In this document: piece by piece, positions 24,001 through 27,000 of the stretch
Position numbering within the stretch: position 1 is the stretch's first letter
Layout of the letters: each line of letters opens with the position of its first letter
Source: Actinomycetota bacterium
GTDB taxonomy: Bacteria > Actinomycetota > UBA4738 > HRBIN12
Reading direction: 5' to 3'
Assembly (NCBI GenBank): GCA_040880745.1
Contig: JBBDHX010000042.1
Span: 4,362 to 68,361, forward strand
Length of the DNA stretch: 64,000 nt
Position numbers: made by a program

Positions 24001-27000
24001 AACGTCTCGCCTTCTGAGCGCGACCACCGCGAAGGACATCCAAGCGCTCGCGGTACTCATCGGCGTCGATCTCGCCGTTCGCGAAGCGCTCGGCCAACAC
24101 GTCTTCGGGATCCCTGCGAAGCTCTCGCCGGCCGTCCGTGGGGGCGAATGCGCGGATCAGGATCACCACGAGGACGACGACGGCCGCCATGGACAGCACC
24201 ATCCACAGCACCCCCCCAGCCGCCGCCGTTCCATCCGTACATCATCTTGAGCTTCCCCTCCCTTGTCGCAGATAGACTCCCTCCGCTCCGGGCATACCGG
24301 GCGAGCCGGAGGTCCCCGGACGGCTGGGCCGGCCGGCCCCAGGTGTTGGAACGCGTGGATCCGGGCCGCGGGACCGTGTAAGGGGGGCAGGCTGCTGATT
24401 GAGCCGGAGGTGCCGATCCGGGGCCAACCTCAGCCGGAACGGGGGATCCAGGACCAGCCGGATTCGACGACCTTCGCCGGTCCATCGACCGCCATCACTC
24501 CGTCGATCTTCTTCCAGCGGAGCCCGCCCCACACCACGAGGCGGTCGCCGGCCCACACCGCGACCGCGCCCTCGTCCGGGACGACCGGGAGAGGTGCAAG
24601 GGCTTCCCACGATCCGTCGAGCGCATCCAAGATGGCCCCCTGGGATGAGACGACGTACCGACCTCCACCCACGGCTGGCCCCGCGTATGCATGTCGATCG
24701 GGAGGCGACGGAAGTTCCTCCCAAACCCCCGTCGAGGGATCGAGCGCTCCTCCATAGGGAGGACCGGTGCCTTGCTCCGAGCCATTATCCCCGACGTGTC
24801 CGATGCTGGGGTTGACGAGTCCGCCCGCGGACCAGAACCAGGACGGGTCGTAGCCCGCGATCCCCGTGTCCGGCAACGCGCGCCACCGGCCCTCGGTCGG
24901 GTCGAAAGTGGCAGCCCGGTACAGATACTCCTCGCCCTCAGCGCGGAGGCCGACCTCGATGCCCAGGAGGATCAGCTCGCTTCCGGTCCAGACGATGCTC
25001 CGGTCGAACGTCGGCATGAGCGGATCAGGTGTGAGCTGGCGCAGCTCCCCGTTCGCGGGCTCGAAGAGGTAGTCGGGCGAGAAGGGCTCGCGCTCCTGGG
25101 AGTCGAGGTACATGACGATGGCGTCATCTGCCGGCGCCAGCCGCATCAGTCCGGCGGATGAGCGTACCTCCGGGGGGAGATCCACCACATCCCACCGGTC
25201 GTCGAGGGGGTGGTACGCGAGAAGGGAGTAGGTCTCCAGGTCAGGCGATCCCCAGACGTACAGGGTGTCGTCTAGGACGGCGCCGGTGTAAGACACGACA
25301 GGCATCGGGGCGTCGGCGATCGTCGTCCAGGTGTCGGTTGGGGGATCGAACGCCGCGCCGTCGAACGGAGCGACGCCGCCGGCCACACAGTGCGCGTCGG
25401 GTTCACATCCTGGGGGCTGCTCAGAGCCACCGATGATCACGACACGGTCGCCGACCCAGAACCCGCTGGCCCCGTACCGGTAGTCGATGGGAGGCTCCGG
25501 CATCGCGAGCCAGGTGCCGGTCGGCTGCGCGCGGACAGATACCGAGGGTGACGGCGACGTCCCAACGTCGACGTCGGGTCCCCGCTCGAGCGCTCGTACG
25601 CCGAGGAAGACCACTCCGCCGAACAGCCCGAAGGCCACGACGATCGCGATGAGACGCTGTCCGGTCGGCGTGCCTTCGTGTATCTCGGGGGATCGGGAGG
25701 GTTCCCTTGTCCGAGCGTCCGCCCACACGTCCGGTGCGTCCACGAGGTCGAGCCTGCGGAGGTGTTCCTTAGCGTCAGGCATCTTGCTGTTCCTCCAGCA
25801 GCGTCCGTAGCTTCCGCCGCCCCTTGCTCAGGTGCACGTGCACGGTCGCGCGGGAGCACCCGAGGGTCGCGGCGACCTCCGAGGTTGGGCGATCGGCGTA
25901 GTCGTGGAGGACCAAGGCCGAGTTGGTGCAGGCGCTGAGGACCCTCTCTCCCAACCAACGTACGTCGGGTACCGCCTCCGGGATCTCGTGGGCGATAGAC
26001 CCATGCTCGACCGGAAGCGCTCGAGTCCGCTGCCTCATCTCGGCGACCGCGATCCGGAAGGAGACGCGCCACAGCCAGGCAGGCAGGTCACGGATTCGAT
26101 GCTCATCGCGCAAGGCGCGGGCAAAGGCCTCGGCGAGGGCATCGCTCGCGATATCGCGATCGCCCGTGAAGCCATGGAGCGCCCGCCACATCCGGTCGGC
26201 GTGCATCCGGTAGGCGGCCTCGACCCGATCGCGTTCGTCCACATCGGCATCCTGCACCGCCCGTACAGAGCGTTCAGGGACCCGGAACCTGTAGGGGGCA
26301 ACACCCGCCCGGTGATGCAGGTTGCGCAGAGCTGTCCAAAGGGCCTCTGACCTGCTGTGGGTACTGCCCCTCTTAACCTGTGGGTACTCGCCGAAGTGGG
26401 GTGGATTCCGTGAGGTCAGGGAGTTCTGAGAACACCCCACCGACTGACTGACCGACCAACCAACTGACCGACCGACCGACCGACCACTCGAGACCCTAGC
26501 TCGGCTACCCGCTCGGGATCCACAACCAGCCCGCGTCTACCATCTCGGCCGCCGTCTCGGTGCGGTTCCAGCGGTACCCGCCCCAGACGATGAGGCGGTC
26601 GCCCGCCCAGACCGCAACTGCCTGTTCATCGGCTTGGGTCGGCGTCGCCGGCAACGCCTCCCATGCCCCCGCCTCAACGTCGAGGATCGCCCCTTGCTCC
26701 GTGACGACGTAGCGGCTCCCGCCGACGCTGGGCCCTCCGTAGGGGGCGAGCCGCTCCGGAGGAGGAGGAAGCTCCGACCATGCGCTTGTGGACGGATCGA
26801 AGATCCCTCCGTAGGGGGGTCCCGTCCCCGCGACGGAACCGTTGTCGCCGACGTGCCCGATCTCGGGGTTCACGACCCGGCCGCCGGACCAGAACCAGAT
26901 GGGATCCCCCATGCTCGGGCTGTTGGGGAGGCGGCGCCAGGTCCCGCGCGCGATGTCGTACGTGGCGACCCGGCGCACGTAGCTCGCCACCTGTGGCGGC

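Follow-up and report, generated by a model that had tools for sequence, protein, structure and literature searches.

In the four-point model of replication template switching, some events do no more than invert a fragment and others place an inverted repeat around an inverted spacer, and a pre-existing repeat is not needed; fragment inversion was the commonest class in Loytynoja and Goldman 2017 (PMC5453318). Intragenic invertons, by comparison, depend on an invertase and on repeats that a recombinase recognises (11 bp in thiC), and both of their orientations are present (Chanin et al., PMC10028968). In this work, we describe a short inversion within SigB, an extracytoplasmic function (ECF) sigma factor gene on the minus strand of contig JBBDHX010000042.1 (assembly GCA_040880745.1), which belongs to the metagenome-assembled genome (MAG) of an uncultured Actinomycetota (2.35 Mb, 52 contigs, 88% complete). 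All positions refer to the window, that is, the whole stretch of 64,000 nucleotides that was analysed (positions 4,362 to 68,361 of the contig, forward strand). With good though not full confidence, we regard the feature as a genuine, spontaneous and evolutionarily recent microinversion in SigB, one member of a tandemly duplicated module of ECF sigma factors and Kelch-propeller proteins.

Like the template-switch microinversions already described (Ripley quasi-palindrome; PMC5453318), the SigB event concerns a short fragment that is reverse-complemented in place with a few bases of inverted identity at its junctions, accompanied by a small length change of the kind left by an overshoot (type 3-1-2-4), and it would likewise present a cluster of substitutions derived from one event. 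It differs from those cases in lying in a bacterial coding sequence whose open reading frame (ORF) stays open and in recoding 16 residues in the DNA-binding domain of a regulator; in addition, its proposed switch points derive from protein-family conservation rather than from a pairwise genome alignment, and it shows no significant quasi-palindrome. Work in yeast, as summarised in its abstract, similarly associates the inversion of spacers between short inverted repeats in genes with multi-residue protein changes, although, unlike the present case, the abstract frames these as eukaryotic lineage comparisons (PMC8604942). Recoding intragenic invertons resemble SigB in that tens of base pairs lying wholly within a gene are inverted and amino acids are changed without a stop, whereas SigB has a repeat of 4 bp, no invertase nearby or (for the serine type) in the MAG, one assembled orientation, and two states that differ by a codon (PMC10028968).

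At the protein level, SigB and its paralogues SigA and SigC share the two-domain sigma-2/sigma-4 layout of ECF (group IV) sigma factors such as M. tuberculosis SigE (9m9d), and, as with ECF sigmas that have membrane anti-sigma partners, each overlaps at its end with the next gene, which encodes a single-pass membrane protein. SigB is set apart from known ECF sigmas by its scrambled region 4.1, and the partners by their Kelch-type propellers, their short cytoplasmic N-terminus and an anti-sigma role that is assumed. On the best reading, the SigB event adds one more short-range template-switch microinversion to those already known, and implies no new mechanism or system. It offers a clean natural example, in a bacterium, of an in-place inversion that recodes a protein instead of truncating it, and it is mildly unusual in that the DNA-binding domain of a regulator is recoded without truncation inside a freshly duplicated module. 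In annotation, flips of this sort show up as intact genes containing an unexplained patch of divergence, and they may be taken for rapid evolution, for clustered substitutions or for a new domain variant.

The inverted segment of SigB and its family context

The 43 bases at 25922-25964 read GTTGGTGCAGGCGCTGAGGACCCTCTCTCCCAACCAACGTACG on the plus strand, and the corresponding minus-strand reading of SigB is PDVRWLGERVLSACTNSALVLH. Within the SigB ORF the surroundings of the segment are ...PEAVPDVRWLGERVLSACTNSALVLHDY... (over a longer stretch, ...HEIPEAVPDVRWLGERVLSACTNSALVLHDYADRP...), the segment itself contributing (D)VRWLGERVLSACTN in the sense direction, and SigA has ...PEPLPELMGALKHLSPNQRLALVLHDY... 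at the matching place (longer stretch, ...YELPEPLPELMGALKHLSPNQRLALVLHDYADRP...). The plus strand of the segment encodes LVQALRTLSPNQRT; in sigma domain 4 this stretch corresponds to helix 1 and the beginning of helix 2 (region 4.1). Reverse-complementing the segment turns the SigB reading into ...PEAVPELVQALRTLSPNQRTSALVLHDY... (also given as PELVQALRTLSPNQRTSALVLH), one codon longer than SigA. The segment is flanked by a perfect 4-bp inverted repeat, CCGA/TCGG, whose extension fails on both sides, and bases 25919-25921 form, on the gene strand, the codon TCG for Ser113, which is extra with respect to all homologues. An earlier, sequence-only reading of this locus had reported the same segment, flanks and restored product; its coordinates and letters match exactly, and the reverse complement bears out its statement that the restored reading exceeds the paralogue by one codon.

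A search of 5.8 billion proteins provided a set of 119 homologues in addition to the window's own protein. All 119 carry the sense-direction motif PE/DL..AL..LSPNQR(L/V/M/I/Q)(A/S/V) at the position of the segment, with constant spacing to an invariant HD, and none contains VRWLGERV or anything similar, the sequence whose natural occurrence in orthologues would, according to the sequence-only reading, have spoken against an inversion. Against a profile hidden Markov model built from the same proteins, SigB scores 218.6 bits in its present form, 245.3 bits when the segment is flipped (+26.7) and 250.9 bits when the TCG (Ser) codon is also removed (a further +5.6). All 437 possible 43-bp in-place flips of SigB were scored in the same manner, and that of 25922-25964 gave the largest gain, at a median change of -31.5 bits; flips outside the neighbourhood of the segment gained at most 2.4 bits, and partial gains were limited to neighbouring intervals in register. 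A boundary scan likewise placed the optimum at this interval and its repeat-equivalent intervals. Flipping extends the Pfam match to Sigma70_r4_2, which spans profile positions 17-54 at 33.4 bits in the present protein and 3-54 at 42.3 bits in the flipped one.

Conservation by column gives the same contrast between the segment and its surroundings. Inside the segment SigB departs from the family at five of the six highly conserved columns, and the antisense reading would restore all conserved columns there, whereas outside it SigB keeps 53 of the 54 columns conserved at 90% or more, of which homologues miss a mean of 1.36. Because no second copy of the 43-mer exists in the 2.35-Mb genome, the patch would have been inverted in place rather than copied from a paralogue, and an ectopic donor or paralogue-derived gene conversion was rejected on the same ground. 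The ancestral orientation is inferred from the protein family. Pfam, the profile, the 119 homologues and the 437-flip scan agree to a degree well beyond chance expectation, and on this sequence evidence the in-place inversion of the region-4.1 segment, as first proposed from the letters of the window, is confirmed.

The sequence-only reading had also stressed that region 4 is scrambled while the frame is kept. Both the scrambling and the open frame stand, but the weight placed on the frame was overstated: turning a segment around in place always leaves the downstream frame as it was, and stops are absent from 83% of the 43-bp flips simulated for this GC-rich gene. The open frame is therefore not evidence of selection, and "in-frame" as a sign of selection was rejected. 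Two further candidates were set aside. Inversion of only the spacer of the inner repeat GTTGGT/ACCAAC was rejected, as turning that interval back moves the motif out of frame and introduces a stop, and a plus-strand ORF of 96 codons (25923-26213) was rejected as a gene, since it runs antisense to the sigma gene and resembles the family only in the 14 inverted codons.

The allele is reproduced by an independent assembly. A Logan contig from a k-mer assembler (SRR27977663_75318, 8563 bp) is 100% identical to window 22545-31107, both junctions included, and the 221-amino-acid ORF called for SigB (P0001) lies on the Logan contig of run SRR27977663. For a de Bruijn assembler to place a spacer in the wrong orientation, the inverted repeats around it must be about k-1 long; a repeat of 4 bp cannot mislead it, so k-mers across the junctions have to occur in the reads. 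The inversion is present in the DNA. Both assemblies carry one orientation only, and restored-orientation junctions were found nowhere in the MAG. Exact look-ups of the 160-amino-acid SigB and of its partner matched only the one Logan contig, the flank-gap-flank pattern had no match in GTDB genome contigs or JGI metagenome contigs, and a SigB-specific 27-mer had none in JGI contigs. The Logan contig ends at window 22545 and 31107 while the MAG contig continues, and these ends may reflect repeats or strain variation there.

It is accordingly very improbable that the organism truly carries the un-inverted gene and that the flip is an artefact of assembly, polishing or library preparation. The genome is a metagenome-assembled draft in 52 contigs at 88% completeness, and the inverted allele is known from one run only, both of which leave some room for error. 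However, the MAG contig and the Logan k-mer contig agree over 8563 bp across both junctions, 4-bp repeats are, as a matter of general method knowledge, too short for mis-orientation in a de Bruijn assembly, and a consensus would not arise from random chimeric reads. As far as it was checked, the assembly artefact against which the sequence-only reading had cautioned is thus countered by the second assembler.

Predicted effect on sigma domain 4

The segment aligns with a stretch of M. tuberculosis SigE in the RNA polymerase holoenzyme entry 9m9d that comprises helices 1-2 of sigma domain 4, region 4.1. In SigB, 16 residues of this region (motif ELVQALRTLSPNQR) are replaced by unrelated sequence, and two family-invariant residues, the L and Q of ALxxLSPNQR, are lost. 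Structures were predicted with AlphaFold2 for SigB and, as a control, for SigA, using equivalent alignments of 112-113 sequences. In SigA, a predicted local distance difference test score (pLDDT) below 50 is confined to the inter-domain linker (residues 81-94), while in SigB it covers residues 85-114. The helices of region 4.1 are predicted at residues 97-103 and 108-119 of SigA, and in SigB none precedes residue 110; the first sigma-4 helix is lost in the SigB model and kept in that of SigA. Within sigma-4, the mean pLDDT of 10-residue blocks is 89-97 in SigA (residues 101-150) and 84-85 in SigB (residues 121-150).

Judging from these models, sigma domain 4 of SigB is probably misfolded, or unable to dock on the beta-flap of RNA polymerase and on the -35 element. 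The present allele is most likely null or strongly weakened, because the AlphaFold2 prediction, itself soft evidence, is joined by the loss of the two family-invariant residues. The consequence would be local, with one of the three paralogous ECF sigma modules probably disabled, and SigA with its partner plausibly buffers the loss.

A functional and selected allele would be a different outcome of the same mutation: SigB might act as a sigma factor with an altered region 4.1, or as a decoy that binds the Kelch partner but not the polymerase or promoter. The intact ORF with its 53 of 54 conserved outside positions is compatible with such a role, as are the helix-turn-helix part of sigma-4, which is still predicted (pLDDT ~84), and the duplication, which leaves room to diverge. 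We nevertheless hold it to be quite unlikely. A very recent null mutation predicts the same pattern, the undecayed antisense motif leaves little time for selection to have acted, and both the missing L and Q of ALxxLSPNQR and the absence of a predicted sigma-4 helix 1 count against such a role.

Origin, age and reversibility

Within the interpretation of the feature as a genuine microinversion, template switching is the mechanism we somewhat favour. In its simplest form, a single short-range switch during replication would have replaced 43 bases by their reverse complement in place and added 3 bases. After ...CCCGA the nascent strand would have switched to the opposite strand, read it backwards through the 43 bases and 3 bases of the upstream flank (CGA to TCG), and come back to its template at GCCTTG. 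The ancestor would then have read ...CCC GAG TTG GTG ... CAA CGT ACG GCC TTG... (PELVQALRTLSPNQRTALVLH), at the length shared by all homologues. The reverse complement of CGA is TCG, and copying of 3 nt into the upstream flank yields the present sequence exactly, as the sequence-only reading had anticipated when it suggested that the extra TCG fits copying into the left flank. Such an overshoot would account for the extra codon and for three bases of the 4-bp flanking repeat. The TCG codon thus looks like a by-product of the event and not an ancestral residue, because the QR-HD spacing is constant in 119/119 homologues and removal of the codon raises the profile score by 5.6 bits. A threonine after QR, as in the QRTALVLH of flipped SigB without TCG, has a precedent in SigC, which reads QRTAVVL. 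In terms of the four-point model, this history would belong to type 3-1-2-4, in which an inverted spacer comes to lie between a newly made short inverted repeat.

A history of two events would place a codon insertion first, followed by a plain inversion between CCGA and TCGG that already existed. It would have 4-nt microhomology at both switches, and the earlier insertion that it requires is present in 0/119 homologues. From the sequence, the single switch is inferred to be the most economical account, although the two-event history may be equally possible. The folding energy of the region is no better than that of shuffled sequences (z = 0.18 and 0.81), with neither a special hairpin or cruciform nor a significant pre-existing quasi-palindrome found by this comparison.

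Breakage is a further route to the same arrangement. The fragment could have been released by two double-strand breaks close together, or by processing of a hairpin or cruciform, and then religated in the flipped orientation through the CCGA/TCGG microhomology; the sequence outcome would be indistinguishable from that of a template switch, and the 4-bp inverted microhomology does lie exactly at both junctions. We consider this route unlikely, given that no Ku gene was found in the MAG (88% complete), that two breaks 43 bp apart with the fragment kept represent a rarer route, and that the hairpin potential is ordinary. Religation would also leave the extra TCG unexplained unless it pre-existed, and 0/119 homologues have such a codon.

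Relative to the rate of sequence decay, the inversion looks recent, because the antisense motif has not decayed, SigB retains 53 of the 54 outside columns and its partner gene is undamaged. The original motif remains perfectly legible on the opposite strand, as expected for an event caught soon after it took place. The closest protein outside the genome (P0002, 67% identical) groups with SigB as its sister in the tree (support 97/85); it is encoded on a JGI contig, and no propeller partner was called beside its gene. Another relative, P0012, has the pair of sigma and Kelch genes but is more distant from SigB. In 40 related genomes the best sigma reached 51% identity, and in 150 genomes of the family the best match to the Kelch partner reached 44%.

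Several points weigh against our interpretation and should be set beside it. The single switch would proceed without microhomology at the first switch point and with 2 nt (CG) only at the return. No orthologue closer than 67% (protein) was found among the 5.8 billion proteins, the 40 and 150 related genomes, or the JGI and GTDB contigs, and the proposed ancestor and the 3-nt overshoot are read from family conservation only. The loss of function, in turn, is deduced from structure prediction and from general knowledge of sigma region 4, and the open frame with a perfectly conserved remainder would also fit a protein still in use.

Reversibility was considered separately. SigB could in principle be a reversible intragenic switch, either a recoding inverton or an enzyme-independent flip-flop, by which a population alternates between active SigB and a form with inactive or altered region 4.1. 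In line with this, the ORF is open in both orientations, the inverted repeats survive the flip so that a reverse event is formally possible, and neither the remainder of SigB nor the partner gene is damaged; in Bacteroides, recoding intragenic invertons of comparable length (57 bp) are known (PMC10028968). However, the repeat measures 4 bp against 11 bp in the thiC inverton (PMC10028968), a recombinase needing ~10 bp or more, and no gene of the Resolvase family (serine invertase, PF00239) was found in the MAG, an absence that is not absolute at 88% completeness. Tyrosine recombinases (PF00589, Phage_integrase) occur only on contigs C3, C6, C7, C39 and C50 and not on the window contig, C42. An open frame both ways is the 83% expected by chance, both assemblies hold one orientation and the MAG lacks the restored junctions, the flipped state occurs in 0/119 homologues, and the one-codon difference in length points to an imprecise mutational event. 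A switch is therefore highly improbable, in keeping with the sequence-only reading, which had ranked it lower in view of the 4-bp repeats; the lack of a Resolvase-family gene in the MAG and the ordinary hairpin energy point the same way.

Equally improbable is a recurrent, two-way enzyme-independent flip at CCGA/TCGG and GTTGGT/ACCAAC that would silence or re-activate one of two redundant sigma modules in a subpopulation, or a recoded SigB that would titrate the Kelch partner as a functional variant or decoy. If a recurrent flip or a decoy of this kind did exist, microinversion would introduce regulatory heterogeneity into an array of sigma factors. The preferred interpretation remains a one-off, recent microinversion.

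The sigma-factor array and its surroundings

Three paralogous ECF sigma genes lie in window 24430-30377, each overlapping the gene for a single-pass membrane partner, and two of the three partner proteins bear Kelch-type beta-propellers. The features of the locus are collected in Table 1.

Table 1. Positions of the inverted segment, its repeats and the genes of the sigma array in the window
Feature	Position	Strand	Basis
SigB partner, 450 aa	24430..25782	-	intact; ORF and domain reading
SigB, ECF sigma gene with the inversion	25775..26257	-	ORF, Pfam, 119 homologues
CCGA, left arm of the 4-bp flanking inverted repeat	25918..25921	+	sequence
Inverted 43-bp segment	25922..25964		sequence, profile scores, flip scans
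GTTGGT, arm of the inner 6-nt inverted repeat, just inside the segment	25922..25927		repeat search
ACCAAC, partner arm of the inner 6-nt inverted repeat	25954..25959		repeat search
TCGG, right arm of the 4-bp flanking inverted repeat	25965..25968	+	sequence
SigA partner, Kelch propeller, 440 aa, 54% identical to the SigB partner	26505..27827	-	ORF
SigA, tandem paralogue, 67% identical to SigB, region 4.1 normally oriented	27820..28296	-	ORF and alignment
SigC, third ECF sigma, divergent orientation, more distant	28562..29023	+	paralogue comparison

SigB likely starts at the GTG at 26257, because the resulting 160 codons, in a minus-strand frame that ends at 25775, fit the homologue length of 150-160 amino acids. 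The frame is open up to another GTG at 26440, which corresponds to the 221-amino-acid call; this call is probably over-extended, because it runs through an intergenic repeat. The repeat in question, of ~97 bp, occupies 26342-26438, between the stop of the SigA partner and the start of SigB, with further copies at 30462-30558 and 33912-34008, and a (GACC/GGTC)n tract (26439-26486) directly follows the first copy. In Pfam, SigB exceeds the cut-off for Sigma70_r4_2 (33.4 bits against 25.7) and for Sigma70_r4, and its match to Sigma70_r2 is weak (18.4 bits, under the cut-off of 24). Its homologues (more than 100, about 150-160 amino acids) are annotated as ECF-subfamily sigma-70 factors.

In the SigB partner, a short cytoplasmic stretch at the N-terminus is combined with one transmembrane helix and Kelch-type beta-propeller repeats, and the protein is presumed to be an anti-sigma factor or sensor. 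Its ATG overlaps the SigB stop by 8 nt (ATGCCTGA), and the two genes are translationally coupled. The pair formed by SigA and its Kelch protein adjoins the SigB pair on the upstream side, and SigA aligns over both domains with M. tuberculosis SigE (PDB 9m9d chain F). From these comparisons the module of sigma and Kelch partner is patchy and locally duplicated, as indicated by the presence of the partner gene in only 5 of the 151 family genomes searched, its own genome counted.

Directly downstream of the SigB operon, genes for a small SHOCT-domain protein, an M48 peptidase and a BlaI/Penicillinase_R-type repressor were noted (window about 22577-24190; L038 6918-8531). Upstream of SigB, no equivalent of the promoter-like element found at SigC is evident: in the divergent intergenic region of sigA and sigC, at window 28440-28480 (+), GGGAACC-N17-CGTT (CCGGGAACCTCGTTAAGGATCAGGCCCGTTTCC) resembles an ECF-type -35/-10 pair. 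In a distant relative (ENA contig_14390, L039 6001-9230), a pair of sigma and Kelch-propeller genes is followed by the gene for one protein that combines alpha/beta-hydrolase and guanylate/adenylate-cyclase domains, a neighbourhood that hints at a signalling context for the module.

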